A stretch of DNA of 50,335 bases from Catajapyx aquilonaris (lineage: Eukaryota), in assembly GCA_000934665.2 (NCBI GenBank), contig JYFJ02002820.1, positions 1-50,335 on the forward strand. The letters run 5' to 3'. The notes under the pieces are model-generated. The model ran no database searches, was not told the origin of the DNA, and worked only from the letters and a program-made list of their open reading frames with translations. The position numbers and the translations under genes were made by a program. Of this stretch, positions 1-43,900 are shown one piece after another (within the stretch, counting starts at the first letter, position 1; each line of letters starts with the position of its first letter).

Positions 1-542
1 TACCCCTGGGGCATATGTGGAGGCCTCCGTATGGATCTGTTTAGGTCACAAAAGAGAGACAGACAGATATAGGTCTTGAAATATGTATTAGATATGCAAT
101 GTTGATTTCATTTTAGAACACGAGTGAAAGAGGCAGATCCATCATTTGGGCTTGTTGACAGCCAGGGTTGCTAGGCAATTGCTTAATCTGCTGAAAACCC
201 CCCTTAGACTCAAAAGAGTTCGAGTTTGGGACTTTTCTAGGGGTCAGTGATATGTAAGACATGGCTCTGAGAAATTTGAGCGCTCTCCGTACCCGGGAAG
301 TGGCTTAATTAGGCGTGACATACATTAATACGTACAAATATTGAGCTTTATATATATGGGGATATTATTGTTACGTTCATCAGTCATGCTAATAGCATAA
401 TTATAATGTTGGCCCTTTACTTCAACTCGTACCTTTGCAAATGCATTTTCTTTGCATGCAGGCAATACTACGTATTAGTTATGTGTACTTAAGGTAACTT
501 TTTGCAGGGATTATCTATATAAAGGTCTCTGTAATGTTTCAG

Positions 543-3500
543 GATTGTGTTATGCTGAGTTTGGTGCTCGCGTGCCAAGAGCAGGGTCTGCATATGTCTA
601 CAGTTATGTCTCAGTTGGTGAACTTATGGCTTTTGTTATTGGCTGGAACCTCATTTTAGAATATGCCATTGGTGAGTGCTTCAGAAAATTGCTCATAAAT
701 AATTATGTTTTCTGTGCATAATGAAATACAATTCTGATACACTGATGCTTTCTTTTTTTCACAGGTACTGCCAGTGTTGCAAAAGCATACAGCAATTACC
801 TAGATTCCATGGTTCATGATAAGATGTCTGCAGCCTTTGCATCTGTCGTCTACATTGATGTGCCTTATATTGGGCACTACCTGGACTTCTTTGCATTCAC
901 AATCACCATGGCCGTTACCATAATTTTGGCAGTGGGAGTCAAAGAATCCTCAAATTTTAACAACATTTTCACTGTCCTTAATCTTCTGGTGGTGCTCTAT
1001 GTGGTCATCTGTGGATGTTTTAAAGGTTAATTACTCTTTTTTTGGGGGGTGACACCTCATTATGTCTTATCTCACACAGCATGGCTTCTCACTGATTAAG
1101 AGGTGCACAGTACATGCTGTGGGTATTACTCTTGAAGATAACAAGTTCAATCATCATCATGATAGTAGAAATTGGCTTTGAAAAGCGTATACCCTAGTGC
1201 TATAAAGCACATTTAAATAGCTGATGGTGGGTTTTGTTGCTGTAATGTAATCCATTACAGTTCAGATAAATGCAGATACAATTGGTGTGTGAATAACATG
1301 TCAACTTGAAGCACATATGAACATATGAATATAATGAAAGGAAGGGTCATTTCTTGTTGTTATAAAGCTCACATGTTTTGAAACACTCCATGTGATGACA
1401 TGATAATTTAGTATTTTATTGATCAAATATTTTGCAGTGATTAATGTAGTGATACCTGTAGATGTCTTTCCTCTTTTGCAATCTTTGTCATGTGATTTGA
1501 GTGCTGCATATAAATACCACAATAACTGTCTTTCCAGAGAAACAAAGCCCATCCGAGTTCAAAATTTGGACATTCCTACTCCTACAGTTTCTTTTCAATC
1601 CATCAGTGATCTGCAAACAAGCAGGGCACCCAATAATTCAAAATTGGATCAACTTCAGAGTTTATGTATTGTTGCCAATACTGATTGGTTTTGTTTTGTT
1701 TCAGCTGACATTGCAAATTGGGAAGTTCCAGAAAGCAAAGTACATGATCTTTGTACTCAAAGCTGCGACCCTCAGCCAAACTGTGGAACAGGAGGGTTTC
1801 TCCCATTTGGTTTTATGGGAATGATGAGTGGAGCAGCCACGTGCTTCTTTGGATTCGTTGGTTTTGATGTTGTTGCCACAACTGGTCAGACTTTCTTAAG
1901 ATCTGGGGGTTAGAATGACAGTTTAATGCTTGGTATTTCATTATCAGGCGAAGAAGCCAAGAATCCACAACGGGCTATTCCTCTCTCCATAATTTTCTCC
2001 CTGGCTGTGATATTTATGGCCTATTTTGGAGTGGCAGCAGTTATAACACTCATGGTACCTTACTGCCTGCAGGTAAGAAGTTCACGTAACAAAGTTATTA
2101 TATTGTAATGATGACACAATTTTATGTAGGATGAAAAGGCATCCCTTCCGAAAGCTTTTGAATTTGTTGGGTGGCCAGTTGCACAATGGATAGTCACAGT
2201 TGGAGCTCTGTTTGGACTCTCAACTAGGTAAGTTTCAGTGACAAATTAGGTGTGAGTGACTTCATTTGGATGTTATTTTTGCAGTCTTTTGGGTTCAATA
2301 TTCCCTCTTCCTCGAGTGATTTATGCCATGGCCTGTGACGGACTTGTATTTAGAAGCCTGGCAAATGTTCATCCGAAGTCACAGATGCCTCTTCTTGCCA
2401 CATTCATTTCTGGATTTATAAGTGGTGAGTTACCAAGTAGCAATAATTCTATAAATGTTTGGTTATGAATGAATCCCTATTACTAAATATTACTATGATT
2501 TGTTGACAACAGCTCTCCTTGCTGCCGTTTTTGCGCTTAAGGAACTGGTGGCTATGATGTCTATTGGAACACTCTTAGCCTACACTCTAGTAGCGGCCAG
2601 TGTACTACTTCTGAGGTAGGTTGATGAAAAGTTGGTGATAAAATAATATCAGTGGTCCCTGGGAACATTTTTGAAATGTCATCATCATTTTTCTCCTCAA
2701 TATCTGCTGCAGTGAATGCTTAATTATTATTATTTTTTTGCTCTTTCTGAATGGCGTGATTCGCAGGTTTGAGGACGAGTCACATTCGGTGACATCGAGT
2801 GAAGGATATAAACTCGTTCCACAAGAGGTGAATTTGTAAGAACTCATACATACCTTATTTTGCACTCACACCAAATAAGGAAATAATTGCACCGCTTGCA
2901 CAGTCAGCACTCTTTATGACTAATCTGATGACAGTACTCCTCTCAGATGCTATAATCATATTATGAATGATTTTGACTGAGGGTATATTGCATTATAAAT
3001 ATTTCAAGAATACAATTAATGTGCTTTAATGGATTTACAACTGCACATGAACTAATGTGACCATTTATTTTTATGCCATCTGACAGGAGGGTAAGTATTC
3101 ACATCCCAGTGAAATTTTGTGGTTGACAAAAATCCAGTATTACTAACACAGAGTATAGCTGACCTCTTCTTGTAGGGTTCCCTGGAGTTGGTCTTTGTTC
3201 TGCTATAAATTGAATCGTATTCTACAAACAACATAAATGAAACTAAATGAGCTCTTTTTATGATTCAAGCAGCATGGAATTATTTTCAGTAATTTAATTG
3301 CACTACAGGGTAGGTAAAGGAAAGGGCTGATATTTTGCAAGTTAGGCTCTAAAATTCTGGAAAAAATATCACAGATTTCAAATGTGTGTACAGTTTTGGA
3401 ATTTGATGGCATATTAGCAAACACTGCCAGGTTTCAATTGAAGGAGAAGTCAACCATAAAAAGTTGCTGAGAGAGGTATAACAAGCAGTTTGTGAAAGTT

Positions 3501-6500
3501 TTGGACATTTCCTGGGCTGGTTGTTAAAATACCCGTTATTTGTTTAATTTTGTATAATTTTGGTGTGTAGTTGGCAAAGTTTGATTTTTGCTTCAGGTGT
3601 TGGTTTGTAGTAACAGTTGTTTATTTTACATGTACACTTGCATTCCATTTTGCTTGCACAGCTAAGTGAATTTATTGAACTTGTCTTAACAGGTTTGATG
3701 CTGATGTCGATGAAGACGAAACAAATATAAATTCATCTGCTCTGACAGTGAAGGAATCGACTTCATTGATTGGATCACAACAACCCACTCCTCACAACAA
3801 TGTACTGCTTCAGATATTTAATCTGAGAGGCCCAAGTCGACCCACATCTCAGACATCTTCCATGGCCAGTTGGCAAGTCCTCGCATTCTGTAAGCAACAA
3901 GCCTTTCAATTTTTGAAGACCTAAAATGCAGAATGATCAGGGACACTGAACCATCAATTTGGGCAGTCCACCACCCTGTATTATTGATTCCATGCATCTG
4001 TCATGTTACTCGCCACATGATGCGAATTATCTATTGTTTTAGGTGTGCTGAGCACATTTGTGGCTGTTACCATCATCCAAGCAGGAGAACTGGTTTTGGA
4101 TGGCATCCCATGGGCAATAGCGTTGCTGTCTGTTGGGCTTCTACTGTTGGTTCTGACACTTATTGGACTTGCACTCCAACCAAGGTCACCAAAAAAACCT
4201 GCATTCTTGGTTCCCTGGGTTCCACTTATTCCTGCACTTAGCATATTTGTCAACATATTCCTTATGTTGATGCTGAGCACGGACACCTGGATTCGTTTTG
4301 GAGTCTGGATGTGCCTTGGTGAGTCCCTCAAATGCACAACTGATAACAGGTTGATAAATTACATAAAATGGAAATTCAGTAATATGTTGGTATATACAGG
4401 GATCTAGCACAAAGTGTATACATGAAACTAGATGAAGCCATTACCTAGTGCTTCAAAGCTCTTCATTTCACAAATACAATTTCTAACAAATATATTATTA
4501 TTAATCACGCACATCTTGAGAAAGTGATATAAAATCATCTCAATGCATTTTCTCATGATGTGAAACCTTCATTCCAAATTAAAAGTAACCCCTTACTGAT
4601 GAGAAAAGGCCCTGTGCAAGATTCCCTGTATATTCAATGCAAAAAGTACTTTTTGTACTGTTCAAAACTCTACATGAAAGTCCACGCCATTTTTCCTAGT
4701 TCTTCACAACATTGTCGTTAATGTCCTAACAGTAGACTTAAGCACCTTTCCTCACTAACAATGCCCTCCCCCTCCTCTTCCTCGTCATCTGTAGGCTTCT
4801 TGGTTTACACATGCTACGCTCTTCCTACACGTTACATGATGGAGAAGAAGCAGAAGGTTGAGTTGCAGACACCTGCAGTGACTGACAATAGTGTGATGAA
4901 TGGTCATGTGAACCACAGTATTCAGGCTGATGATGGCTTGATGCCTGAGATTGCTATCCAGCAAGCCACTCCTGTGCCCTCTGCTGCAACTACTCCAGTG
5001 ATGGAGAAGGAGCAGGAAAAGACTTTTGAGACATCAGTACGGATTGTCTTCCACAATGTTGATAATGAGTATGACTCAATTGATGAGGCTGAGCAAGACA
5101 GGCAGAGTATGGAGGCAGTAGAAGACCTTGAATATGTTATTGAAAAATTATCCGAGGGAAGCCTTATCCTGGACAACAATGACAGTGCACAGGACAGTCA
5201 AGATGATGGTGCTGAAATAGTTACTAATGGACAGGAAGAAGATAATGATTTGGTACCAGACGTGGCACTTACTGAGGCAGATGATAATAACAATGAAGTC
5301 ATTGCTACCAATGAGCTAATTCAAGATGAAGTGTCTGCTGTTGAAAATGCTGCTCTCTGCAGTGAGACCTCAAGCATTAGTGAACACACTGCTCTAGGCA
5401 GCAGTGACAATCCTGTCAAGTCAGATGATAATGAAGTGACCAGCATTAATGATGTTACAGAAGATAAACATCAAGGCAATACCTATGTTGAAGCAAGCAG
5501 TGAGATTGGTAGTGTTGAAGATGATTCAAGTAACAATTTAGCAGACATGGACAAGAATTCCACCATTTCAGCAAATGCTGATGACTCTCAAGGAGACAAC
5601 AATCCAGTGATTCTAAATGACCCCGAGCCACCTCTGGATGATAGTGAACTCCAAGTAGACAACACTAACGAAACCAAGCAGAACAGTGATGTGATATCAG
5701 ACAACAATGAAAGCAGTGAAACCCCACAGGAATTGCCAGTCGTCAAAACAGAAGAATCCAGCCACAGCAGCTTTGCTGAAATTCTGTCCAAGATGGAAAA
5801 TTTACACTTTGGTCAAAATAGCCCTTTTGTGTCAAAGGCACCTTCAGAAGCAACTTCAGCCACAGCCGATGAGCAGGATTTGAATCAATCTGTTCATGAT
5901 GACTCCATAAGTCCTCCTCCATCAGAAATTCCGACACCTCCACCTTTTCCTCCCACATTTAACATTCCCTTGTCACCGAGTGCAACAAAAAAGACTGTAC
6001 CCAGGGTCAGAAAGGCATCTGTAGTCCAGAGGGAACTTAAGGGCCAGCTAATAGATGAATTGAAATCAATTCTCCAATCTGGCAAGGGCAGCAGTGAGAA
6101 TGGTGGTGATGATGATGGTGGTGATGGTGAAGAAAAGCCACCAATTAGAAAAGTGAGGAGCTCGGGGAATTTAACATCCCTTGATGACAATGAGTTTGCA
6201 GCTGCCCGCCAAAATCTTAAAGCACGTGGGGTTAACAAACCAGAGGGCAACAACAGAGTTCCCAGGAAAAATAATAAACCTGCACCATCTCAAGAAAAGG
6301 AATTTGTCATAGACAAAGACCTTCTGTCACCATATCAAAAACCTCGAGTAGAAAGCAACTCCGGAAGCAGTGGTCCCAGCAGCAGCAAACGAGGCAATGG
6401 TGTCCGAAGATCTGCCAATATAAGTGCCATGATGACTAAGTTCCAAGCAGATGTTTGATCCTGCCCGATTTGACTCTTACTCTTGTGTTTCAACATTGTG

Positions 6501-6887
6501 TACAAAATACTAATAAAAAGTGTAACTGTACATATAGTTGGCACTGAGCAATGACATTGGCTCAGGTACCCAACATACACATTGCAATAAAAAAGAGAGA
6601 TTGAGAAATTTTCTGATAATACTTCAAGGAGATTGTTTTTTTTAATCAGTTGTCAGAATGTAAGATATCTTAGGTGGTTGCAATCAGTGGTCACCAGGAG
6701 TCGCTTTTATCACCTGGGAAGTCACATAATTTCAAAGATTCTGGATGGTAACAGCGCCAATTTTCCCGTTGCAGGCTTTCTCATGTATGGCTGTTACGGC
6801 TGGTGGCACAGTGCAGAACGACAATTGCGCCAGCAAATGATAAATGGAGCCGCCACTGAGCCAGAGGAAGAAGTGAAGGACAGCTGA
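543..6887 (+). CDS. Cationic amino acid transporter (SLC7A1-4 / slimfast-like, APC superfamily), 5'-truncated by the window edge; canonical short-tail isoform
   Basis: Frame-consistent AG/GT-bounded exons: 543-671 ([40 protein letters not shown]), 765-1025, 1705-1884 ([26 protein letters not shown]), 1948-2072 ([12 protein letters not shown]), 2130-2227, 2285-2424 ([20 protein letters not shown]), 2513-2615 ([10 protein letters not shown]), 3693-3889, 4043-4318 ([21 protein letters not shown]...TWIRFGVW), 6775-6887 ([13 protein letters not shown]...stop). These motifs are hallmarks of CAT-family transporters; the exact ortholog cannot be assigned by eye. Confidence 0.95.
4795..6458 (+). CDS. 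Alternative terminal exon of the cationic amino acid transporter, encoding the end of the last TM helix plus a roughly 550-aa acidic/proline-rich tail
   Basis: Branch-point-like ACTAAC (4754-4759), long pyrimidine tract, AG at 4793-4794. Phase 1 matches the donor after 4318. Begins GFLVYTCY, homologous to GFLMYGCY of the 6775 exon. Open for 1664 nt; AATAAA at 6512 and 6586. Confidence 0.85.
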
Positions 6888-7242
6888 AGCTTCTGGTATC
6901 TTCGCATCCCTTTTAAAAATGAACTGGGTAAATTCTAGCAGTCATGTCTTTCAGATCTGACTCATTTTTAATACTTATTTATTAATCTAAGATGTGATCT
7001 GATTTTCATTCCAATTGGCAGTGTTGTATTTATGCTGTTGTTTTTATTTTCAAGATTACTCGAGTGCCAAAGAGGATTCAGTATTCAGTGTTTTAAGTAG
7101 AACCAATACTATACTGGGGTTTTTATTGTTTAATGAAGGACATAATTTAAAAGTGCAATTATATGTACATTTACATGAAATGAATTTGAAGCAATGCAAT
7201 GTTTTAAAGATTGGAGAGGTGATAAGAAAGTGTTGAATACAA

Positions 7243-9831
7243 TCACAGTGAATAAGTAGTAACAATGTAAATAGTGCCAATGACTCCCATCATGAGAGCA
7301 AATGGCAGCCATGTCTTCAAGAAGCTTCCAACACTAAAAAGAAGAAAGTTGATTAGTTTACATATATCATTTCAAAGGCCTTTTCAAGCAATACACTACA
7401 CCTCTGAAGCGTCACTAGTTTTGATACACATTCCAGTCAAGCTCTGCATGATGAATAGTGCCATGCAAGATAATATTTGAACTATTATTATAAGTGGTAA
7501 CTGCTGTGATAGTTTATGCAGGTATTTGGATAATTTCTGCAGGACATTCATATGAGTAATGACATAATACATAATTGGTGCAACACTAAAATTTATTAAT
7601 ATGCAAACATCTTGCTGCATGTCAAGGAGCAGACACACGGGACAATTTGTTAATATAAAAAATAGCAATGACAATAACTTCAGACTGACTTGCACTGCAC
7701 ATCTTATTCCCAACTGTTTGTGTGTCTGCCCTCATGGTATTACCTAAAGTATCCTACAACGAACCTTACTGAATATCTTAGGGCTGGTTCTGGGATAGAC
7801 ATATCAAACTCAGAACGAGCTGTTGATTAATGTTTTTCATGTAGGATTGATCTGTCAATCACTCAACCAATATGCATGAGTAATTCCCCCGTAAAAACAG
7901 GCATGACTGACACCAGTAAGCTAATTTTCCTTGATTTTTTAAATGTTCATAAAAGGATTTCAGTTTTCCAACAGATGAAGTCATCAGTAAATTGATATTG
8001 GATGTAAAAACCCTATGAGTTTCTGCAAAAGTCTGATCATTGGCAGGAAAAGTCATGTTTTGCCCAAAGCTGGTTTCTCAGACAATCAAAATTCTGGTTA
8101 AAAAAAACCTAAAAAACCTTTTAAAAAAACCTAATCATAATCTTACATTCATTGTTATTTCCTTTTAGACCTGTTGCTTGTACAGTATGACAAATATTAT
8201 GTGATCTATTGCACTATTAGTCATTGTGTAGTCCAAAGTTGCAGCATCACCTTTGCAGATTGATGCATGTCTTAAGTTTGAGAACTTTTACTGAAGATAT
8301 AACATTGTCACCTGATTCACATGATGTACTGTAAACCAGCCAATGAGGGGCAGCAGCAGGCAGAATTGGCTAATCTAATCATGTGAGCACAGTCAGGCGC
8401 GGATCCAGGGGGGGGGGGCAATTGGGCAATTGCCCCCCCCTGAGCTCCCCNCCTGAGCTCCCCCGGAAGAAAAAAAACGGAAAAAAATAGAAAAAAAACG
8501 GGTGGGAAACTTGCAAAAAATTGCACTGTTCTATGGGTTCTTTTCCGTTTTGCGGTCGCGACCCCAAATTTGGGGTCGCAAGGAAGGGTTGTGACCTTGA
8601 ACTGGAAAAAATTTTCGGCTGCGGCGGGCCCTCCACCCCCGCCCCCAAGATAAATTTTTGCATGCACTATACCCTTGTGCCCCCCCCTGAAAACATTTCT
8701 GGATCCGCGCCTGAGCACAGTTAATGTTACCTCTCAATTACTAATGCCTTCAACTTTATAAATCTGACTTTCCAGATGTAACTAACCTATTCTGGACAGT
8801 GAAGTAACTTACTAGTAGGGTATCTGCTGCGGTAATGTATCAAACAGTTCCCTGCGTTACTTGTTAATTGTGAGGCTATTGCTGAGTTGAAGGCCTTCTT
8901 TAGTTGAGAGCCTCTCAGTACTTAATAATAATGAGAGAAAAATCTAGTCTATAAACAAATGGTGTAATTATTTATTTATTTTTCAATTGAGCCGTGAGTA
9001 ATCCAAATCTCAAAATTAATCAAGTCATGCTTCAGCTTATTCATTTGCAGTTAACCCACTTGCTGTGTATCTTGTGGCTTAAGAATTTCATTGCTGACAA
9101 ACTCACCTCGCATACTTTCCATGAATCAGCATAAGGAAACATAGCTTCACCATGTTCCAAGATCCACTACTGTTGTAATGCATCTTGTTGAGAGCCAGTG
9201 CAACATGTGAATGGCAATTGTCACAAAACAAGTTGTGCTGTTGGATGAAAAACAAATGTTTAGAAATTAAAACAAGTGTACATAATTCTTTCTGAGATAA
9301 TAAAAAAATTACAACTTTCTACACATCTTATTATTTCTATCGTGCACTGCATGTATCGACTCACCATCCGTCCTTTGTACACATCCGAGGCTTCCCTCAC
9401 GCATCTGTCCCAAGACTTGATCCCACCGTCCACCTTCACCACGTCCAGCTTCCAGTACTTGGTGGGCTTTCCAAAGGACATGTCATCCTCCGACACATAA
9501 TACGGGCCAGCAAAGTCTCGAATCACACCAGACGACATTGCAATACCCATGTGGCCTACAAACGGCAGCAGCCATCTGCAAAGAACGGGATGAACATGCG
9601 AACTTAATTAAGGAACTATTATTTATTATTATTATTATTATCCAATCATGGTGAGAATTTTAAGGGAACGCACGTAAGAAGTGGTATGGGCGTCCACACT
9701 ATGCAGCAGGGATATCTGCTCTTCTTGTGGTCCATGAGACCAGCAGTGTCCTCGACTCCTCCGAAGCCCTCCTCCGAACAGCCAGACCCCACGGTTCTGC
9801 AGGGAGACTCACCACCGCTGCTTCCCATCAC
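7243..9831 (-). CDS. TMEM222: Transmembrane protein 222 (DUF778 / RTE1-like family), complete, 4 exons
   Basis: Exons 9831-9674 (RYPCCIVWTPIPLLT), 9575-9365 (WLLPFVGHMGIAMSSGVIRDFAGPYYVSEDDMSFGKPTKYW), 9237-9107 (HNLFCDNCHSHVALALN...WNMVKL) and 7333-7243 (SVGSFLKTWLPF...stop). All junctions are GT-AG and in frame; motifs match TMEM222. Confidence 0.93.
8394..8713. mobile_element. Non-autonomous hAT-type DNA transposon (MITE), 320 bp, in TMEM222 intron 3
   Basis: Perfect 15-bp TIRs CAGGCGCGGATCCAG (8394-8408) and CTGGATCCGCGCCTG (8699-8713). Exact 8-bp TSD AGCACAGT (8386-8393 and 8714-8721). CAG termini with an 8-bp TSD are typical of hAT elements. Confidence 0.92.
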
Positions 9832-25442: not shown

Positions 25443-28111
25443 TCACCAGGGCCGCCAGACGGCAACGTCATCCGAATGTTGGTGAGGCTGATGGTGCACC
25501 ACACACTTATCATTATTGTCCTGTTGCTGTTGCTGCACCTGCTCGTGTTGGTGACTCTGCGTTGGGAGATGAGGCGCCGGGGCCACCAACAGCTTCTTCC
25601 TGTGGTCTACCCTCCGCAGATGCTGTGCAGGGATCACGAAGGCCAGGTCGCCGTTGGGAAGCTTCGTGGGCAACAGGGCATAACCAGAAGGGGTGTGGAC
25701 GACCATCGGCGCCGGTTTACCGCCAGTACTGCCTTCGCTTTTGGTCGCCTCCTGATGACTCTCGTCGGGTTGGTGCTCTTCTGCTGGGTCTTCTTCTTTG
25801 GGTCGGTGGTATTCTAGCTGGTCGAGGCGGCGGTTCAGGTGCTTCAGGAGCCTCTCTTGCTGCTGGAGGAGGCTTCCGGACGATGTCTCTGCGAAGAGGT
25901 CCTCAACCATTCGAGCGCACTCGGTGAAACCAGCCAGAAACTTGTTCTTGCTGCAACTGGTGCTACTTTCGCTGGTCTTTCCGCTGGTGCTGCTGCTTAT
26001 AGCCGACTGGTCACTCGAAGAAGACACTTGATGCTGGCTGTCGTGAAGTCTTTGGACGTGCTTCACCGTCATCTCCAGTATGTCGGCTTTCTCTAACTTT
26101 GCAGGCCGGGCTCCCTGTGGAAAAGGAAAGGTACGGCGGTGTCACATGTATGCTCTCATACCCCTATGATTTTTTCTCAAATTTTAAATAGGGCCTATAA
26201 AGGGGACCGACTTTAATCATTGTCTGCGCTGTGATGGATTTTGATTGTGGAAGGAAACGGGAGAACCCCGAGAAAACCCACGCTAACACGGAGAGAACCC
26301 ATCGAAACTCGATCCACATAAGTATCCTTTGTCCGATCCGGGGATCGAACTCGGGACCTTAGAGGTGGAAGGCTGTGGCGAAATTTTAAATATTAACATG
26401 CCACTATTTTCCTACGGCGCAACGGCCACACATGCCAGCTCATCCTAACCGCATTATTTCACCCTTATTATTCCTTCCAGTATATATATCAATTTTACTC
26501 CCAATTCGAATTGCAAATTATTTTATGCAGAATAACATGATTGTAGAATACCAGCTATATAGGAGGTGAGCTCCCTATACGCACTGAAAACGGTAAAGTG
26601 ATGCGTGTTGCTGTTCTACTGACTTAATTAAGAAATATATAATTATGTTAATTACAACCTTTTTCAATTAAAGTGACATCTGCAAGCTTGCTGGGATGTC
26701 TTTGACGTAGTTGAATAAACAGGTACAGTACATGTATTATATATACGTATAACTTGTGAAATAATACAGGCTGACATATTTCGATCGATCCTAAATGAAC
26801 GTAAATAAAATCACAGGATACAGTTATGCTCATTTTAAAATTGTAATTTACCTGTAATTTCCGTAGTCTACATTGCAGAACTTGCACACCCCTTAAATAT
26901 TCGCATTATTAATTGGTGAATTTTGAGCAATGTTTGTCTCGTGCTATAAAAAGTGTGCTAATGTAGTCGGTCACAATACAGTACAGTATACAGTGTTTTA
27001 CATTATATCGGACCTACTGTATCTACAGAATTTTTCCATATAGACGAGTGCAGGCATGTGAAGACAACCCATTATCACCATTCAGCACTCAACCCATCAC
27101 AACTAACAATAACACAGATCCGATGATATACTTTTTTGCTTCATCATATAGGTCCTCTCTGTTTTTCTTAGACAAGCAGAACAGAGAGGTCCGAAGTGAC
27201 GAAGCGAAATTATCAGAATCTACTACTTGATGGTGGTAGAAAAGTGGTAGATCCATACGCATAATGATTGTATTTTGCTATGCGCTTTACAACCTTCACA
27301 GCTAATTAAATATTATCTTGCATCTCCAATCGCGACGGAAGTTCCACCTTAACAATGACATGTTAACAAAAACTTTTTATAGAACAATTATGCAAATCAT
27401 GCAATTCTGAAATAATACAGAGTAAAATCACAGAAACTATGCCAATAATCATCATACGAGGGTAACATACCGTGTATGTTCTAGAAGTACTAAAGAAGTA
27501 TGCTTGAGCAGCGTATAAAATAATTCTACGAATGGTCTATAAGCGGGCCAATTATATTGATGTAACTCTAAAATGACACCACCCCAAATGAATGTTTGAA
27601 AACTAACCTCCTTCTTTGCAGAATTGGCATCTAGTAAAAGTCGCTTTAACTCGTTGAGGCTGTGATTAATTCGGGCCCGTCTTCTTTTCTCCATCAAAGG
27701 CTTGCGGATCTAAAACCAAAAGAAATGTCATTTGAAGCAGTGTTGTTTATGTACATGCAAATATATGAAAAGTTCTACAAAATGATTGCATTTGCCACTA
27801 TTTTTAAATGGCGAAACAAATAATGCCAATTGACTATTCTTCGTTCTGTTCATATTATGATGAATCTTCATTTGCAATTTGCCCCTCTAAGTAGCCTGTA
27901 ATGGGTGTAACGTGTGTGACATATGAAAGAAGGAACAATTATTATAATAAAAGTCTCAGCGGATAAATGCCTTCAAGTCTCAATCTTTGGCATGGGAAAT
28001 GACATGGGCTGCACTTTGTACTTGAATAAAGTTCCTAAAGTACAAATACCGTACCTTTCTAGTCTCAGAGGCTTTCGACGGCATGTTGAGACGAGAAAGA
28101 GCGGAACTCAT
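25443..28111 (-). CDS. HES-family (hairy/deadpan-type) bHLH-Orange transcriptional repressor with C-terminal WRPW, 3 coding exons
   Basis: Exons 28111-28055 (MSSALSRLNMPSKASETRK; start could instead be the ATG at 28084), 27709-27608 (IRKPLMEKRRRARINHSLNELKRLLLD) and 26114-25443. The last exon has KLEKADILEMTVKHVQ, the Orange domain FLAGFTECARMV...ERLLKHL, the hairy-class motif LLPTKLPNGDLAFVIP, and the Groucho-binding end VWRPW-stop. Confidence 0.95.
26240..26380 (-). mobile_element. V-SINE-like tRNA-derived SINE fragment in HES intron 2
   Basis: Plus strand TGTGGAAGGAAACGGGAGAACCCCGAGAAAACCCACGCTAACACGGAGAGAAC resembles the reverse complement of the V-domain core (GCGTGGGTTTTCTCCGGGT..CCGGTTTCCTCCCACA). 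A B-box-like GAGTTCGATCCC lies on the minus strand near 26340-26352. Confidence 0.7.
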
Positions 28112-31948: not shown

Positions 31949-34900
31949 TTGAGGGACATTTCATCCATGTAATATTTTTTTATTTTCAAGAGCAAGGTTT
32001 CCTTATGCATGAAAATATTAAATGTAAAGGAAGTTGGCATGTGCTAAGAATGTTGTGACATGACCTGGCGTGCAGAATGTGATGGCCTGTTCACACAGAC
32101 GCTCCTTTTTCACAAAGAAGCTTTGGATTTCCTTTGCCACATGTAAAAAGCAGCTTCTAACTTAACTCACATGTGAAAAAAGCGGCTCTTTGAACAGACT
32201 ATGTATTATGACTGATTCTTTTTGCTGCAAGAAAAATATTTTATTCGCGGTATTTGCTTATTATACTAATTTTGTGCAGGTGAAGTGGAAGTGGAAAACC
32301 TTCCTCTGAAGAAGAGCGCATTTCAACACTTTGGAGTGCCTGTGACGGTCCGGACTGGCTTTGTTGGGAAGATAAAACTCAAGATACCTGTTAGTCGACT
32401 GAGGAGTGAACCCTGGGTCATTTTCATTGAGAGACTTTATGTTGTAGTTGGCCCTCTTCGACTGGATGAAGTAAGTGGAGTTCAATTAGTAACATGCTTT
32501 ATATGTTATATCTGATGATTAATCACAACAGGGAAATGTGTTTAGAACATAATTATGCTGTTTCAATATGCTGAACTCTGTTAAAACATTAGTAGTTAAT
32601 CTATTTTCTATCATTTATTAGCTTTTTATGATTTTAATTTTCCTTTTGGTCTTTTGGAAGATCCAGACTTTTCCTATAGGCATGAATTTTTGGATTTTGA
32701 GCACTAATGATCAGGATGCATACTTTCTTCTCCTGTTATATTAAGTCTAATCCAGTAATATCTCTGTGGCTTTGTTCACTTATTGATTGATCACGTGTTT
32801 GTGAAAATGTTTAACAAATCATCTCTTGTTTGTTTTAGTATGATGAGGAGCAAGAGGAACAAGCAGCCCAGGAATGGAAGCTTTCACAGCTGGATTCCAT
32901 GGAAGCACAGTGGCGGGCTGAGTATGAAGCCAAGCAGATGGAGGGAAGTTCCTCCTATTATGCCTCCAGTTACTCCTCCTGGTTGAGCTATGGGACCAGT
33001 TTGGTGGCCAACATTGTGGAGAATCTTCAGCTCAGGATTCATGACGTTCATTTTCGATATGAGGATGATCTCACCCTTCCCCGACAGCCCTTTGCTTGTG
33101 GTTTCACAGTGGGCAGCCTTTCTGCCCAGAGCTGTGATCACAACTGGATGCCAAAGTTTGTGTCCTCCGATTTGGAGGGAGGGATGGCTTTCAAACTCCT
33201 TGAGCTACATGATCTTGCCGTTTATTGGGACTCCAAAGCAGACATGGTTGGAGATCTTCCATTGTCACAATTGTCGGTATGTGTGGAAAAGGTTATTAAG
33301 AGTTATATTTCTGACTTGTGATGGTGTGCATTGCAGAACACATGTTAAATTTTTTTTCAGGAGGTAATGTGTCCAAGTAGCAGCAGGTCTCCTGAGTTTA
33401 TCCTTGCTCCAGTCAGTGCCCAGGCACATGTGAAGCGAAACTGCTCAGAAACTCCACTCAGATCAAGGAGTACACCACGCATCGTGTGTGACCTGCAGTT
33501 AGAAAAAGTTCCTCTTCAGCTTACAGATGTAAGTTATAATTTTATATTAATGCTTTTGAAGGCAAGCAGTTTTAACCAGTCAATATGTACCTTAAGTGCA
33601 TTTTACAATCTTTCTCTCACACCATTGTGCTAAATGTATATTGCATTATTTGGTGGTCATAAATTGTGATCCTTAATTGGAATTGCTTTTAAAATGTTGT
33701 TAGTAATTAAACTGGTAATTTAAAATTTTTCTTAGGCCTAAACTAGCTTACCCTTCACAGAAATTTGACTAAGTTAATATGAGACAATCCTGGATGCTTT
33801 CAGACTCAGTACCGCCAGCTTGTATTGTGCGTCCGATTCTTAGAGCAACTAGCACGTGGCCGCCCCTTTCGCAAATGGCGCCCAGATATTTCTATTCAGG
33901 AGAATCCCCGCTGCTGGTGGAGGTTTGCCACTCGTTGCCAAATTGAGAAATCCAGGCGTCGATGTGTTGGACGGAGCAAGGAGGCAACACTTCAGCGATG
34001 CCGGGATGCTGTTGCATATGTTAAAGCCTACTCACAGCACTTGAGAGATCCTGTGGGCCAGCTAAGTCCAGAGATGAAAGAGATCAAAGATAGGATGGAA
34101 TGTGATATGACTCTAGAGGAGTTGAAAGGTCTTCGGGAGGCAGCTATGGATGGAGTAATGAAAGAAAGTGTGGGAAAGGTGAGGAAGGTGGACAAGCAGG
34201 ATGGACAAGGGTTGCTGCAGAGGTGGTTTCCATCATGGGGAGGGTGGTATTCAACACCAGCTGCAGCTGCTGCAACTCCAGCAACAAGTAACGTGGGGAA
34301 GGAGGAAACACAGAAAGAAGGAATGAGACGGCTGGAAGAAGAGTTGATGGAGGCTCTCAATGACACCATTGAGAACAACACCATTTTTAGGCGAGATGTG
34401 CTGTTTGGCATCTTCAACTTTCAACTGAAATCTGGAGAATTCAGATTATATTTAGACAACTTAGGACAAAAGTGAGTGAAGTGTCATTAACATCAGTTTT
34501 ATTTTTTTACTTGTTGACTCTCTGGTTTTACTCTTGGTGTACTAATTTATTATTATCTGAGTTCATCATATTAGGCTTTTATTGTATTGCACTAATTTTT
34601 CAAAATTTCTGTTTTAGGACCCCACTTCTGGAGTTAGAATTTGAAGAAGTGAAAGCAGGCCTTGAATGGTGTCCTCGTTCAGGCTCCTACAAAGCAAATT
34701 TGGGCCTTGGAGCAATGTATTTGCGTGACTGCATTACAAGAGACAGTGTTTTCCCTGTGCTAATGGCCCCACAGGGCAAAGAGGCTGCCCCTTCTTACAC
34801 CAGAGGTCCCTCCCTTGTTGCTCATGGACTTGCCCGTATAGGAAGCCTTCTTAGCCCGAGGGGCACCTCTCCAAGGGTTGGACCAGGAATGGGGTGTGCA

Positions 34901-37900
34901 ACGGATGAGCCTTTGTTTGAGCTGACTTATGAACGCAAACCACTGGGGACTAAGGCAGACCATCGTCTCAAGATAAGGTCACAGTCACTGGATGTGGTTT
35001 ATAATCCACATGTGATCCGCTCAGTGAGGGATTTTGTAACTCTACACACACAAAAGAAGGAAGGGCAGAGTGCGAGGGAACTTAGCATGTCACAGCGGTG
35101 GCAGCGGGTGGCTCAGTACAGGTAAGAACATACAAATGCAGTATAGTTTTTTATCCTGGGAGACAGGAATAAATTAATCCAGCGATATTAAAATGCTGCT
35201 TTCTAATTACTGCATGTATTATAACATTTTACTCTTTTCCTCATGTTTGATTCTTGTGAAGAAATGTAACTAGTGATATTTCATATATAAAGGTATGAAG
35301 CAGTGAAACAGAAGACGAAGGAAGAACTGAGGCGCAACTGGGAGCAGACCCTGGAAGGACCAGATAGTAGGAAGAAAGAGGTGCAGGGCCCAGCCCTTTT
35401 ACGAAAAAGAGCAACTTGGGAAGTGGACCTGGATATTCAGCCTCCCAAGATCATTTTTGTGGAGCACTTCCAGGACAAGAATGCAGTGCTTGTTGTTATG
35501 GACTTTGGAAGGTTTCGCTTTTTTAATGCCACCACTAACATACCGCTTGAAGGGCCTCGAAGTGGGAGGGAGAGCGATGAGGATGGTGAGTTGAGAGTGG
35601 AATAATAATAATTTTCTTGCATTTGATTTTGATCATCCATGAAGCTTTGGTCAGATGATAAGAACTGTGTAACTCTGCGCCTGCCAAAATAATTTTTTAG
35701 ACTGCTGTGTCAGCATATGTTATGGTATTCTTTAAGTGCTGACTTGATGCAAAAATTGCATGCGTTTTCTCTTGCAGAGTTCCAAACCCCATGTTCAACT
35801 CCTCCAAGTGAACTTGCATCTGCCAAGGAAGATGTATCTAAGTCATCTGACCCACCTTCTTTATCTGAAGACAAGTCAGCTGCTGCAGAAATTCCTCTTC
35901 ACCAGCGTCTGTATGAGCGCTATACCCTGGAGACATCAGATATTCAGATTATTGTAGGGAAGGTGCGGGAGAACTGGAAATATGCCCATCTGAAAGGCAC
36001 ATCCAGCCTGCATGTACTGGATAGGTTTAACATAGCAGTACAGCTGGAGAGGAGGATCATGCACACGGCAGATCCCATGTGGCCTAGTGTTACCCTGAGT
36101 GGTAACCTTCCAAAGCTGGTAGTGCATATCAACGAATCGAAGGTCAATGCTCTGACTACCATGCTGGCTCTTCTTGGGGATGGTGGGGCCAAGTCACCGG
36201 CAGGGTCACCAAGCACTGATAGGGGTTCTTTTGATGAAGATAGCCCCATGTCAGAGAAGGTTACCAGTGTGGAGGAGACATCTAATCGGAAGGAGATGTC
36301 AGCTGAAACGAGGCTTGTTCTCATGCAGTTTAGTGTTGAGCAGGCAAGTTCTTGAAAATTTTATTTTTGCTCTTGTGTGACTCTCTTCTTATTGCTTGTT
36401 GTAGAGTGATTCATGGATGATTTCTTTAACAAGTTAGAATGAATATACTTGAGTTAAGTAAATATTTATTACAGGTAAGCCTGGAAGTGCAGTCCAGGGG
36501 GAGGAGTGTGGCAGAACTTCAGGTTTCTGGAGTTCGCGCTTCCTTCACAAAGCGTCCATATGACACAAGTATTACTCTCACTGTTCATGGCCTGCTACTT
36601 GTTGATGCAATGCAGACATACGGACCTGATTTTGAGCTACTTGTTGCAAGTCACAAACATGTGAGGTGAGTGCAAAGAAAGTGAGGAATACATTTAAAAA
36701 GTTTTCAAAATCACCAGTAAATATAGCCTACTCATAATTTCCTGTGTCTTAGGTCAGATTGAATTGCTTGTAAAATTTCAACTGTATGTATATCTTGTGC
36801 CAAATATTGGGATGATAATTTATGTAGACCATTGAAACTCCAGAATCTGAACAATTTTTCTTAGTTGGGGTACACCCTTCTCAGTAAAACAAAACCAGCA
36901 AGATTGCACCTGCCATTAATGGTTGGTTGGTTGGTTTTTGTCAGCAATTAATAATTAGTGCAATACAGCTGGATTTGTTTTACTGATTTCAGTGTTCCCT
37001 GCCCTCAGCCATAAAATGGGGGCAGTCAGGTAATATGTGGCATGACCATTACAGTATGGATAGTGTGAGTGGCAGTCTGAGAGACAGTGAGCCAACTTCA
37101 CCCACTTCTCCTGCGTCTCCTGATCCCACTGCGCCAAAGATGACCTCCCCTGTGGCATTGAGCCAGGCATTATACCACTTGCAAGCAGAAGGACAAGCCT
37201 TGGAAGCCAACCGAGGTAAGTCAATGAATCTTCTTCGACTAGTACTAATGGTTTCAAAAGTCACATTTTCATCTGTCTCTTGTTGCAAATGAGCAAATAA
37301 TTTATATAATCATTGCCTTTTGCATTAGCAACATCCCCAACGTTCCTGGATCCCACTTCACCTCATCGGGCTCAGTCTCCCACACCATTGAAAGGTGGCA
37401 ACCATCAGCCTCGCCATTCTCTGACCAACATGGAATTTGTAGATTCAGATGCCCTGATCACTATTGAGCTTGTTGTTATCAGTCCCTCCTGCCCCACCAA
37501 TTCAGATGAAGAGAACAATGAAACTCTCCAGATTGCTTCAGTGCAATTCAACACTTTGGATGTGATAGGTATGATAAAACTCACCAGTTCATTAATTTTA
37601 TATCATCGTGAAAGCAAGTTATGAAACTGTTTTATGTTTGCAGCCAATCAAGAGACAATCGTTGAACTTGTGGGTTTCATCAAGAGTATTCTACCTCAGA
37701 AGTCTCCCTCTAGGCAGGCTTCAGTCAAGCAGAATGAAGGCCTCATCAAAAGGATGGATGCCATAGGTGAGAAAAACTGGACACTAGTGATTTTAACACA
37801 TACCTAGTAGTTGCATGCATGAAGCAATAATTTTTGCAGATGGGAGTCGAATGTCATTTTCACAAGGAGATGGTGGAAGCGTCCCTCAAACTCCCATGAC

Positions 37901-40900
37901 TCCAATTTCCAAGTTGCCTTTTGAAGCCGATGATGAGTCTAAATTGACCCTAACCAGGACAGAAGTCACTTTTGATTTTATTCGTCTCAACATCCTCCTG
38001 CTAAGGGCGGTGATGAGAGAGAACACAGTGGTTGGAAGGAAGATTGCCACTGCCACCATGACCGAAGCTAGGATTCAGGCAACTGTTGGTGAGTGTTTAA
38101 TGGCTGTCATGTAACTGTTTAGTTGTGGGATTCATTTTGTGAATATTTTATTGAATAAATATTCGTTGCTTCATGTCAGTTACATTCGCCAAGGTAGTGA
38201 TACTTGGTAATAATATTAAACACACATGATTTGTAAATGGGGTTGCAGGAGAGTTACTGTAGTTTGAAATTACTTGTTAATGTAGCCTACATATTATCAG
38301 AGCAGAGTGATTTATAGTGGTTGTTGTCTTTTGTGTAGGTTCTGAACTGGTTGTTCAGGGTTCATTGGGAGGACTGCAGGTGCTTAACCTAACTCCAGAG
38401 GGTCAGAAGCATCAGAGGATCATTAGTATTGGACTGGATCCCCTTGTGGAGGATCGTACAGATTTGTTGACTGCCCTGAGTGCTGAAGTCTACAAGACCA
38501 TGTCTTCCAACGTACCAGAAGAAGAGGAAGTTAGAGCTTTCAGCTTCTCAGTGACCAGACCTCTCTATGAGAAAGGAAATAATGTCCAAGGTGAGCTTTT
38601 GAAGTGATAAAATGCACATACTGTACTGTTATTACTGTTAAAAATAACAAATTTATTGCTAATGCATTTAAAAATAATAACAAAAATTATTGCAATGTAA
38701 GGGCTGATTGTACAAACAGTGCTTGAGTGCCACCCATGCTCCAAGTAGCACCTTGGTGGGGCACTGTTTGTAAACTATATATAAGTACCGTAACCTAATT
38801 GTGTCACTACCAACACGTTGAAAGAAGAAAGTACAGAAAGAAATTGCAAAAAAAATGCAGTACTGATATTGGTTGCAAGTTTATTCATTCTTGACATTAT
38901 TCCAGGATTTCCCTCATTGGCCTCTCTTCCTGGTCGGGACCAAGTGGATGTGAAGCTGAGGATGGCTTCTGTCTGCTATACCCACTCTGCACAGTTCCTT
39001 CATGAGCTTCACTCATGTGCTACAGAGTTTAAGCAGTATATGTCAAATCTTGCGGCTTCCATCAGAATGGCAGCTACTGAGGTGGCGCTGGGAATCGTCC
39101 ATGCCAGGTGCGGGCTGCCTGTTTTTAAAGAAGTGAAACAGAGCAAGTGTGCCAGTCCTAGTGACAAGTATGGTTGAGTAATTGAGAATGAGATGTGAAA
39201 GAGCTTTTGTTGTGCTTAGTTATGAAAGAACATTTTTGCATTTCTTTCATACCATCATCTTTTAACCTGACAGGGCTGAAGTTCTTGCCCAAAGCCTGTA
39301 CCTGAACAACCGCCTGTCTTCCTCCTTTTATGGGGGCTCACTCGAGATGTCTCCAAAGCATCGCCGACACAGCATTTCAAAGTCAACTGAATATCTCGAC
39401 ATGGGTACTGGGAGTAGCAAACCTACATGTTACCACACCCCTGCAGAGGAGATAGAAAACCAGGACTTCGACATTGACATAAAGTGAGTGACTGTCAGTT
39501 TCTAAAATGTATTTGCCTATCTGGAGTGTTTCTTTACTGACTCTTTCACCTTGATTGCAGGTTTGACATCTTGTTGGAGAGTCCAGTGATAGTTCTTCCG
39601 CGGTCTCCTTCCAGCTTGGATGTCCTGGTAGCTCATCTGGGTAGAATCAGTGTACAAAACTCTTCCTCAACATCTAGCCAGGAGTCATTGCTGGGGTTTG
39701 GAGGAGACCTAATGGACAACTACTTGCATCAGGAGCAATTCCATATTGAGATCAAAGATATGAATTTGCACTCACTGAATTTGTCTTCAAAATGGCAGGA
39801 GAAGGGGTTAGTGGTTTGACATGTGTCATAATTCAGTTATCATAATAATATCATTGTGCCATGTGATGCTGGCCTGCATTTCTGGAGCATGATGTTAATC
39901 CTGCATAATGCATTGCATTTGTCCATGCAGGTTATTAATGATCATAATAATATGGTAACACTGACATGAGTGGACTGAGGTTGATAGTTGCAACAGAAAG
40001 TTTACCTTATGAAGTCTGACAATGACCATGACCATGTAATTTTCTTCACAGGTCTACTCTGCCAAAAGCTCAAGACCTCTACTCATGTGTGAACAGCAAT
40101 GGAAAGGCCATTGTGCACAACACAGCTATAGAACTCTGTGTTCATCGACAAAAGAAAGGTCCACAACCTTCTTTGAGCAGCTCTTGCCTTCTCTTGGATA
40201 CCTCAGAAGGGAAATCTTGGCAACAGGAATCCCTAGAAATAACAGGGCAAATAGTTACTAGTCTGATGGTGTCTCTCAGCCGGTCACAGTATGAGCAGCT
40301 GCTGGAGTCTCTGGACAACCTTGCATATGATGACATGGAAGCATCCATTGGGGTCAGAGACAAGGGGGATTCTGGTCTTCTGCGTAGGATAGATGAAGAG
40401 GGGCCAGCTGATGTAGGGTACAGGACTGGCTATGATCGAAAGCTCAGCACAGAAAAGGGTCCTGTGGAGAATGACCGTGGTGCTATGTTTGTTCAGTTGA
40501 AAGGTATGTGTGCATTAAATTAGAGCAGTTGTTGCATTAGTAAGTTATTGATAGGGTTATGTGACATCCAGCTTGATTTTGCCAGGTTCATTCACTATTC
40601 CAAGGATCAGCATTGACCTGCTTGGGGACTTTGGTGTGGAAGAGAAGGGGTTAGTTAACCTCTCCTTTAATGACTTTGTGGTGCAGTATGAGAAGGATGA
40701 AGAATATGTCACAAATATGCAGGTGCAGTATTGTTAAAAGATTTTCTGAAAAGTTTGAAGTAATTGTTTAAGGGTTTGTTTGCTTGTGAAGTGAATTTTC
40801 AGACACATGCATGTGTGGTCATGCTGTCCCCAGTTCAGTCTCTGGATTTGCAAATTGTTTTGAAGGGTTTACTTTACTTCACCAGTACACCTCTTTTTTT

Positions 40901-43900
40901 GTGTGCAGATTGCCCTGAAATCACTAGTCATGGAGGATTTGCAAGTGCCTGAGGACTCAAAGCACCGGTTTCTTGCATTGTCCTCAACTGGTGAGGACGA
41001 TTCTAATCGGCTGGGTCAAAGGCCACGCTTTGTGTCAACATCATGCCCTGATTTATTGAATCACGCTCCTCTTGCACAACCGCAAGGGTCTCTTCCTGAC
41101 CACCTGGAGACTGAACAATTTTTTTGGAAACTGCCGTACAAGGAAAGACGGAAGAAATCAGGTACTTTGACACAACTCTCTAATTGATTCGAAATTATCA
41201 TGTGTATGTTATGCTTACTTGGATATCTTAGTAGCTAATTTTGATATAAATAATTATTGTCATTGCCAATATATAATGATCAAATCTGTGTTAATCAACC
41301 CTCTTGGTACTGCAAATGCATTGTAGCACATATCTGGTGTGTGTAGGTGTGTGGCCGTTTTCAGAAAAAGTAATCTCCAATTGTTGTGCATGCTTGATTT
41401 CCTTATGGCTGGAACCAAAGAGCCTAATAACTATTCTAAGCTCTTTGGCTCTATCCAGAGGGTTGAGCAAGCTTTTTTTTAATGTTGTTCATGTTTTACC
41501 AGGGTGCAGCTGTGGAACTGCTGAGACAACTAATGAAATCCATTTTTATTACAGCTGCATTTGTGTCGAAAAAGGATGATGATTACCCTTGCACTCCCCC
41601 ACCCTCACCAAGACCAGATGGGATAAGGAAGGATCCCATAGGAGAGGACAATTTGGTTCGCATTAATGTCGTTCTAGTGGACAAGAAATCACCTGAGCTT
41701 TCTTCCAAATATAACTTGGTGAGTTATCACAAACTTGTTAGTAAAGTCACTAGCTTATTAAATTTTTTTACCCCTTAGACTCATCGCTATGTAGATGTTG
41801 ATTTCCACTCCTTGGACATAATCCTCAATCCCCAAGCATGGGTTGTGGTCTTGGATTTTTTGGGTATAGAATCTAATTCTACATCTGGAGAAGCTCCAAA
41901 AGTGCAGCGGGCTGAAGTGTCCGGGCTGCCTCCTACACAAACTGCTGCTTCAGTCACCAACTGGGAAGTTGATATCCAGGTCAAATCCTTCACAGTTGTT
42001 CTCAACAAGGTAAGATACTTTCTAGAGCTCAGTAACTGCGAATATAGTATGGGTGTCAGAATTTACCATATAATTATACACTCACTCCTGTCACCTTGCA
42101 TGCAAGTGTAACAGTGAGTTACAGACACAAGTGGAAATCCCTGAGCACTAGTAAATTTTTACTGTTACAACTGCGAGGTAAATTTTGTAATGTGCTGAAT
42201 AGGTTGACACCTACGCTGTTACGAAAAATAATGACAATATTTGCAATTCAGTTGTTGTATTTTCATTTCCAGCCTGAGTATGAGTTGGCTAGGGCAAACA
42301 TCTCCAGCCTGGTTTCCAGAGTGCGGCTGTATGAAGGGTCTGCCACTGTCTCAGGGAAGTTGGGAAGCATTTCACTGCTGGACTTAACTCCACATGGACA
42401 ACTTTATAAGGACAGATTTGTCTCATCTGGGAAGGAAGCCTTGGATTTTTATGTCTTCAAGTGAGTTCTTTTTTGCAGTGTAATGCAGAGAGAAATACAC
42501 TACATCACATAACATTATTATTAGTATGTGTGCTGATAGAAGAAGCTAGAAAAATATTTTCACTCTGAATAATGGTTTTCATATTTGTGAAAATTTTACA
42601 GGTATGGGAGCAGTGACATGCAACTTCAACGTGATTGTGATGTCATAGTCAAGCTGAGAATGGCATCTGTTTTGTACATTCACACCCAAAGATTCCATTC
42701 CGAATTCCTGGGCTTCTTTGAGCACTTCAGTCAACTGAGGAATGTCATGAGCAGGATTCGTGCTGCTGCTGCTGGCAGTGTGGTAAGTGTCTACATTTAT
42801 TTTCACATGCAATATTATTGACTGATAGCGTTTATTTTTCAAAGTGGTATAAATTATGTAGTGCCAACAGATTTTCAAATATATGTAGAATTTAATTTTA
42901 ACTTATGCTCAACAACATAATAATCAATAACATTAAAAATCAGGTTGATGAAACAACTCCAAGCCGCTTGCGAATCCTTCTGGACATCCAGGCTGGGTCA
43001 CCCGTTCTGCTGCTTCCACTCAGCTCAAAGTCAAGCGAGGTCTTGGTGTCGGACTTTGGTTGCTTGACTGTGACAAATAGCTTTAAATATTCAGAAGTTC
43101 CCACACTGGAAGGCAAACCTCCATTGCTTGACATTATGTCAGTAGAGTTGGTTCGAATGGATCTGTATGCAGCCAGAAGGGAATCAAAGCCACTTGATAG
43201 GGATCCAGGGAAGGATGGTGCTGTTTTGGTGTTCAGCAGTTGTGTGGTAAGGCGGACTGGCCCACCCCTTCTGAAGGAAAAATGTGAACTGAAGTTGCAA
43301 GTGCAGAGGAATCTGGACTCAGGAACAACTCACAGTGGCAAGTATTTGTATTACAAGGAAATTTTGAGTGTTGGATTTGGTGAATCTCACATAAGTTACT
43401 TTTGTTCTCAGCAGTTCCTGATATGAGTGTGATGGGAACGTTGTCCAGAGTACACTGCACCCTGGATATATCCCAGTACAAGCTGATCCGTGGACTGTTG
43501 GCATACAACATAGGCGAGCCCGTTGATGAGTTTCAAGGAGTTGCATCTCCTGCTGAGATCAAAACATTGGGTTTTCAGGTAAGTTCAGTAAGACAGGTAA
43601 AAGTGAAAGATCCATTGTAGGATTGTTGTCTCCGTACATGCAATATTCGTGTAATGTTCCTTCAGGCCATAACCGACCTCCAGAAAATAGAAAATTCACG
43701 AATCTGAGTGTACTACTATATTTCTTGGTAGTTCATGTACTGTGGAGAAAGTGCATGGTATTTCATATCTGTTCACCTGTGGTGAATTTAATGGCAAAGC
43801 AACTGTCTAACTAACTCATTTCTACAGAAGGTGGGAAACAAGGTGTGGCAAACTACATTCATCCACATTGACCTTGTTGATGTGACCTTGGAGCTTCTGG

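Follow-up and report, generated by a model that had tools for sequence, protein, structure and literature searches.

Why does the last intron of a transporter gene hold an open frame of 554 codons, and what does this mean for the end of the protein? The question is raised by a 50,335-nt stretch of Catajapyx aquilonaris DNA (assembly GCA_000934665.2, contig JYFJ02002820.1, positions 1 to 50,335), called the window in the following. It carries, on the + strand, a gene of the cationic amino acid transporter (CAT) type, in which one splice donor, after 4318, is followed by two acceptors in phase with it, 4795 (proximal) and 6775 (distal), as found by direct reading and translation. The proximal exon is probably an alternative last exon. 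We consider it fairly likely that the two exons act as alternatives: use of the proximal exon with intronic polyadenylation would give the transporter a 543-residue disordered tail, and skipping it would give the ordinary protein.

With three insect CATs as tblastn queries, CAT exons are found spread over 536-4320 of the window (42-82% identity per piece). They are collinear with the insect proteins and cover them from query residue ~76-81, depending on the query, to the end of the core; the first ~80 residues of the transporter lie outside the window. The Pfam family AA_permease_C (PF13906) matches 4021-4317 (1.6e-15, 57.4 bits against a cut-off of 27, model positions 1-37 of 51), and the solved CAT1 structures 9uat and 9fqt give a 91-residue alignment (E 4e-15) to the last exon that both forms share. 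Together with the collinear exons, these matches identify the gene, by its sequence, as a CAT-type (SLC7A1-4-like) cationic amino-acid transporter, as the original prediction had it. The last common exon (4043..4318, + strand) is supported by GT..AG joints in spliced RNA contigs as well as by Pfam, the CAT1 structures, and tblastn. It encodes the last complete transmembrane (TM) helix plus the N-terminal half of the final helix, and it ends at WMCLG with a phase-1 donor (TGC CTT G|gtgagt). This boundary cuts the last conserved C-terminal block midway, and therefore the terminal exon must supply the remainder of the final helix. In vertebrates, CATs end in GFxxYxxYGxxHS.

The proximal acceptor (tcatctgtag|GC) opens the exon at 4795. 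The 3' splice region in front of it (4745..4794, + strand) has a branch-like ctcactaac, a pyrimidine tract (31/40), and the AG. From 4795 the frame runs for 554 residues (1661 nt, 4795-6455) to a stop at 6456-6458, so that the coding part of the long terminal exon (4795..6458, + strand) gives 11 residues that finish the last helix and then the 543-residue cytoplasmic tail. Only G-F-L-x-Y-x-C-Y of the canonical end is retained here. Two AATAAA signals follow, at 6512-6517 and 6586-6591, and these are the sole AATAAA/ATTAAA hexamers in 6440-8500. The distal acceptor (ccgttgcag|GC, at 6775) has fewer pyrimidines, 21/40 vs 31/40. The coding part of the short terminal exon (6775..6887, + strand) encodes 37 residues and stops at 6885-6887: the canonical G-x-x-x-Y-x-x-Y-G-x-x-H-S end (13 residues) and 24 more. 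All positions and lengths that had been predicted for the acceptors, frames, and AATAAA sites are correct on direct reading.

The 554-codon frame is beyond chance. It has no stop, vs 15-79 in the other five frames, and the longest open reading frame (ORF) in 2000 mononucleotide shuffles of the region is 181 aa (mean 81) vs 554 aa in the real sequence. Codon positions in the proximal frame are biased as well (position 1 has 38% G and 11% T). The exon start is equally distinct. Among the 6230 AG sites of the window, read on both strands in phase 1, 4795 is the sole one with 6/8 identities to the eight residues that begin the distal exon; six runner-up sites reach 4/8. The original prediction had taken the terminal exon to be duplicated. 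The residues at the two starts are alike to this extent, and the DNA is 16/39 identical, which is no more than the shared residues require. Therefore, if one exon start copies the other, the copy is old. By these comparisons either an old duplication of the exon start or convergence on the same half-helix may apply, and the two fit equally well.

RNA data come from X1, the only public run with part of this stretch and one of unrecorded kind, which is stored as contigs and was compared with window positions 1-9000. Five GT..AG joints are listed in the gene (2225>2283, 2423>2512, 2613>2765, 3889>4043, and 4317>6774), and therefore the X1 contigs derive from spliced RNA; introns of 57-153 nt are recorded in the spliced contigs. 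The joint to the distal exon is in a 553-nt contig, in which the exons 3693-3889 and 4043-4317 are followed by 81 letters from the distal exon. Since this contig has the joint 4317>6774 (4318>6775 by direct reading), the short form is real. Another contig, of 1415 nt, aligns to 5200-6599 and includes three quarters of the long frame, the stop, and both AATAAA signals. The 3' untranslated part of the proximal exon (6459..6599, + strand) is set by this contig, which stops at 6599, 8 nt past the second AATAAA. The contig end may reflect the 3' end of an RNA, with which it is compatible but of which it is no proof. An acceptor near 5198, considered as an explanation of the contig start at 5200, was rejected: it is without a pyrimidine tract and meets a stop within 7 codons.

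Transporters of the same build are annotated in insects. Searching with the last common exon among longer proteins retrieved 21 proteins (denoted by P numbers); all the named ones are from insects, with 44-74% identity over the aligned part. Nine of the 21 are at least 900 aa long, and 15 have >200 residues after W[IV]RF..WM..G. RefSeq and GenBank list insect 'CAT1-like' long proteins of 900-1122 aa with tails of 350-600 aa, plus short forms, which come from the same species or from related ones. Long forms are found in Diorhabda sublineata (isoform X1, XP_056647777.1, 1122 aa), Zophobas morio (XP_063926032.1, 1090 aa), Blattella germanica (C0J52_06403, 1119 aa), Trypoxylus (1105 aa), and Popillia (1087 aa). 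The groups with an annotated long form are beetles, cockroaches, and stick insects, and long insect forms bear RefSeq accessions and isoform names. The short insect ends are canonical, e.g., GMILYFGYSVRHSEE in Periplaneta 'isoform X3', GFAIYGLYG in a firefly, and GLSIYFCYGVRHS in a bee. Ends comparable to that of the distal exon are GMILYFGYSVRHSEE and GLSIYFCYGVRHSKM, and its Y-G-x-x-H-S is as in the short forms P0008 and P0021-23.

The branch point is shared. The window donor lies after WMCLG, and insect long and short forms split at the same residue. In one short/long pair, P0012 vs P0015, the proteins are 75% identical over 585 aa up to the glycine of WM..G and unrelated beyond it; P0008 and P0024 are likewise similar up to WM..G and divergent after. 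Since long and short insect CAT1-like forms in RefSeq and GenBank branch at this residue, the earlier view that such an isoform would be without precedent does not hold. A full-text literature search found no description of a long-tailed CAT isoform, and a term search of PMC3824880 gave nothing relevant to one. Long-tailed CATs are thus an annotated but unstudied class, to which the window gene adds a member. One retrieved protein has another ending: P0004 (Logan-derived, 314 aa), the relative that scores best with the last common exon, ends WMLIGKNFYKIFCDA just past the branch glycine, which is either a third kind of ending or intron read-through.

The insect tails have features of their own in common. 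None of the six long forms scanned has a Pfam family in its tail at the Pfam threshold. All ten tails compared are net acidic, most with a proline-rich middle and most with a neutral-to-basic end. They share conserved blocks, with leave-one-out Z of 3.4-16.6 in the four tested: ..LD.vL.., RK.SvDSVSnAS...EE.VvA.VH, a proline run, NLkFGs..yK.F...L, and d.K.KL..FL, as well as a C-terminal block, H+..M...F.SI+L+K.DSF, that is sometimes doubled. The blocks and their leave-one-out scores indicate that such tails are maintained in insects.

Several results, from RNA, from substitutions, and from sequence searches, weigh against the long form in the window gene. To begin with RNA, the original prediction rested its splice switch on two junctions from the 4318 donor. 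That to 6775 is present in an X1 contig. That to 4795 is not among the joints listed for X1, and the sole listed joint from this donor leads to 6775. What stands of the switch is the exon anatomy, the distal joint, and the presence of 5200-6599 in a contig. Note that the X1 contigs drop rare forms and that the joints are those among the pieces listed. Bins 601-1500, 3001-3600, and 4501-5100, including the first 400 nt of the long exon, are without contig cover and uninformative either way. The 5200-6599 contig may also come from unspliced precursor, and the contigs show neither RNA end nor level. This contig is unlinked to any transporter exon and, with an in-frame ATG at 4762 and AATAAA signals of its own, it would suit an independent gene nested in the last intron. 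The product of such a gene, which might start at ATG 4762 or later, would be an acidic, soluble protein with no relation to the transporter. We regard a nested gene as quite unlikely, because the frame opens immediately after a strong acceptor, in phase with the donor upstream, and starts with the half-helix that the transporter needs, at the sole such site among 6230 AG sites. Moreover, what lies between ATG 4762 and 4794 is the pyrimidine tract, and in insect proteins a tail of this kind is joined to the transporter at this very residue.

As for substitutions, the contig differs from the window over 5200-6599 by 26 letters and two insertions (+6 and +9 nt), and the analysis covers the 20 of the 26 differences that are listed. 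These are 16 nonsynonymous and 4 synonymous changes (pN/pS ~1.1), and residue constraint is undetectable. A frame that carries the 20 substitutions and the two insertions is still open, with 560 aa. The chance of an open frame after 20 random changes is 0.495, and therefore the comparison of window and contig does not demonstrate upkeep of the frame. Divergence of the tail contig (26/1400) is like that of a presumed untranslated region (UTR) contig (20/988) and above that of the core exons (4/~720). These figures, along with the lack of tail relatives in the searches and of a listed proximal junction, are what a transcribed but functionless exon would show, one that is an old terminal-exon duplicate, splicing/polyadenylation noise, or precursor, and whose frame drifts neutrally. 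This alternative is unlikely, since a 554-codon frame, compared with the shuffle maximum of 181 aa, would not stay open without selection. Also, this arrangement is kept in insects, whose tails have conserved blocks, and both indels in the frame are multiples of three; those listed in the presumed UTR at 7364-8351 are 1, 2, 3, 3, 1, and 2 nt. The changes are unevenly spread as well, 17/20 in 5200-5887 and 3/20 in 5888-6455, the last 190 residues, where pN/pS is 0.59 (from three changes). This pattern fits a nearly unconstrained acidic linker with a better-kept C-terminal third, the numbers being small.

As for searches, no Pfam family is found in the tail. It is also without a relative among 5.8 billion clustered proteins of near or longer lengths; word-indexed searches found none among 6968 candidates of 304-970 aa and none among 7999 scored proteins of 971-2770 aa. 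A phmmer search of 1.84 billion representative proteins gave 0 matches at E<=0.001, none of 342 pattern matches in metagenome contigs was confirmed, and the best score in the ESM Atlas with tail residues 356-554 was 0.79, the noise level. Being an orphan sequence without relatives, the exon might be a transposon remnant or captured foreign coding DNA. This is highly improbable: there is no mobile-element Pfam family, no inverted or terminal repeat in 4300-6800 (direct repeats there are only 17-28 nt), and no second copy of the long exon within the window, and the composition is acidic and of low complexity.

Similarity to the insect tails was compared in several ways. The best E in BLASTP of the window tail vs 15 insect tails is 0.86. 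A profile of 10 insect tails scores the window tail at -26.6 bits, a score equalled or exceeded by 352 of 1000 shuffles. With 23 block matrices the best p is 0.001, which is 0.023 after correction, and this test is counted as null. Smith-Waterman alignment with the cockroach tail reaches Z 5.6, through the proline block only; without the proline block, all ten comparisons give p>0.05. The proline block resembles the Blattella tail LPTPPPLPPFTQPFSP and is the only stretch clearly similar to an insect tail, in low-complexity sequence. Scored as a collinear chain of 23 blocks, the window tail reaches 63.2 vs 42.6 +/- 6.6 (p=0.005, or p=0.016 with 30-residue local shuffles), and the reversed tail 35.8; the traceback shows many weak matches and two moderate ones. 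In the same test P0018, a divergent but true insect tail, has Z 3.4, similar in strength to the window tail. The block chain is the fifth kind of test tried and is therefore treated as a hint. By sequence, then, homology of the window tail to the insect tails is suggested at the level of a hint and is not established. Eye-picked resemblances to insect tails (RRPSSQPNLTSL) were set aside; they are unsupported statistically, and some depart from the order found in the insect tails.

The long tail itself has a marked charge layout. It contains 46 K+R vs 104 D+E (net -58). A Ser/Asp/Glu/Asn-rich acidic part (4944..5993, + strand, residues 51-400) has a net charge of -65 over these residues, by counts in 50-residue bins, and includes a proline-rich block of 23 residues (5910..5978, + strand, residues 373-395). 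It is followed by RVRKAS (6003..6020, + strand, residues 404-409), the one regex match to RxRxx[ST] / [RK][RK]x[ST], which makes it a candidate basophilic-kinase site. The basic C-terminal part (6144..6455, + strand, residues 451-554) has net +10 and ends KFQADV. All four tail segments are on the disordered side of the charge-hydropathy boundary, and no TM-like segment is found in the tail (top 19-residue hydropathy 0.51). This agrees with the disordered cytoplasmic tail that had been predicted; judged by composition, the tail is probably disordered. A motif scan gives 17 CK2-type sites and nine [ST]P sites, as leads only, and no SH3, WW, EVH1, Homer, or dileucine pattern is found in the tail by pattern scan. 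An imperfect trinucleotide array at 6100-6130 (TGG/ATG units, 9.7 copies) encodes GGDDDGGDG inside the tail and was flagged as a repeat in the contig comparison.

For the alternative last exons, we infer that splicing reaches 4795, that polyadenylation occurs at ~6600, that the tail is disordered, and whatever function it may have. With splicing to 4795, the AATAAA signals would terminate the transcript within the stretch that is the last intron of the short form. In the long form so made, 11 residues would finish the last helix, followed by ~400 acidic low-complexity residues, the proline-rich block, and ~150 basic residues. When the proximal exon is skipped, 4318 would join 6775 to give the ordinary 37-residue end. 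The transport core is the same in both forms, and therefore the switch should alter tethering or regulation and not cargo. The choice of tail would then bear on sorting, anchoring, docking of cytosolic partners, and phosphorylation.

The insect long CAT1-like forms are the closest match to this arrangement: they have the CAT core, a degenerate half-helix at the same residue, and a long acidic Pfam-free tail with a proline block. They differ in that the tails are without significant sequence similarity and the window tail is more acidic (-58); note that the insect forms are compared as proteins. Vertebrate CAT1/SLC7A1 (9uat and 9fqt) aligns with the last common exon, and the window distal exon corresponds to its ordinary short end, but the solved chains (601 aa; 902 aa with GFP) are without a long tail. 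Another example of two proteins from alternative exons of one CAT gene is found in SLC7A2, where mutually exclusive exons give CAT2A and CAT2B. There an internal loop is exchanged and transport kinetics are changed, whereas in the window gene only the cytoplasmic end changes.

Long cytoplasmic extensions on transporter folds, such as the C-tails of yeast Snf3/Rgt2 and the N-tail of Ssy1, recruit signalling proteins. They may serve as a working analogy for the idea of a 'transceptor', although they belong to other transporter families and their extensions are constitutive, with no alternative-exon switch. Insect CATs (Slimfast and mosquito CAT1) are upstream of TOR and GCN signalling. For the window tail, a scaffold or transceptor role is a candidate suggested by hints at the motif level (RVRKAS, the proline block, 9 [ST]P, and 17 CK2-like sites). 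A wider proposal, tentative and rather doubtful, is that the window gene carries its own version of a cytoplasmic module that is old and evolves fast. This module would have been an alternative last exon in arthropod-type CAT genes since before the split from insects and would be recognisable by collinear short motifs and charge layout. Switched by splice/poly(A) choice, it would make the carrier a tethered signalling or anchoring platform (transceptor) for GCN1/TOR-type pathways. It is reported that the C-terminal tail of Aedes aegypti CAT1 (28 residues), used as bait, finds GCN1 (PMC9587632). There the cytoplasmic C-terminus of an insect CAT serves as a protein-binding site in nutrient signalling; it has no alternative long exon and no sequence relation to the window tail.

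The long form approximately doubles the protein with a cytoplasmic tail and would occur in the genome of the window as well as in beetles, cockroaches, and stick insects. No study of it was found, and it is therefore an obvious candidate for coupling transport to signalling, sorting, or anchoring. For annotation, the locus indicates that a 1.7-kb 'intronic' open frame without relatives can be a genuine terminal exon. Taken by itself, the window gene would be a well-formed but ordinary case of alternative last-exon use.

Downstream of the short terminal exon, 6888..8351 (+ strand) is tentatively assigned as its probable long 3' UTR, with X1 contigs on 7146-7335 and 7364-8351. One X1 contig departs from the window sequence at 7335, 3' of the short terminal exon. 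There is no AATAAA/ATTAAA in 6888-9265, ~2.4 kb downstream of this exon. On the - strand an RTE1-like exon is found at 9260-9607 (PF05608, 3.5e-21), which bounds the extent of the transporter 3' UTR.

Rfam and tRNA scans of the window find no RNA gene. The stretch 8380-8480 consists of a G-run, CAATTGGGCAATTG, a C-run, and a twice-repeated CCTGAGCTCCCC around the single N of the window (8451), and has the look of an assembly join or of a palindrome of low complexity. An open frame at 25443-26141 on the - strand has a helix-loop-helix match (PF00010, 8e-5) and a hairy/HES-like ADILEMTVKHVQRLH; the HES label is given by eye. Many exons of a VPS13-family gene are found at 32839-46900 on the + strand (VPS13_N 1.3e-36, VPS13_M 5e-10). 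They include a UBA-like domain, and the product is presumably a VPS13D-type protein.

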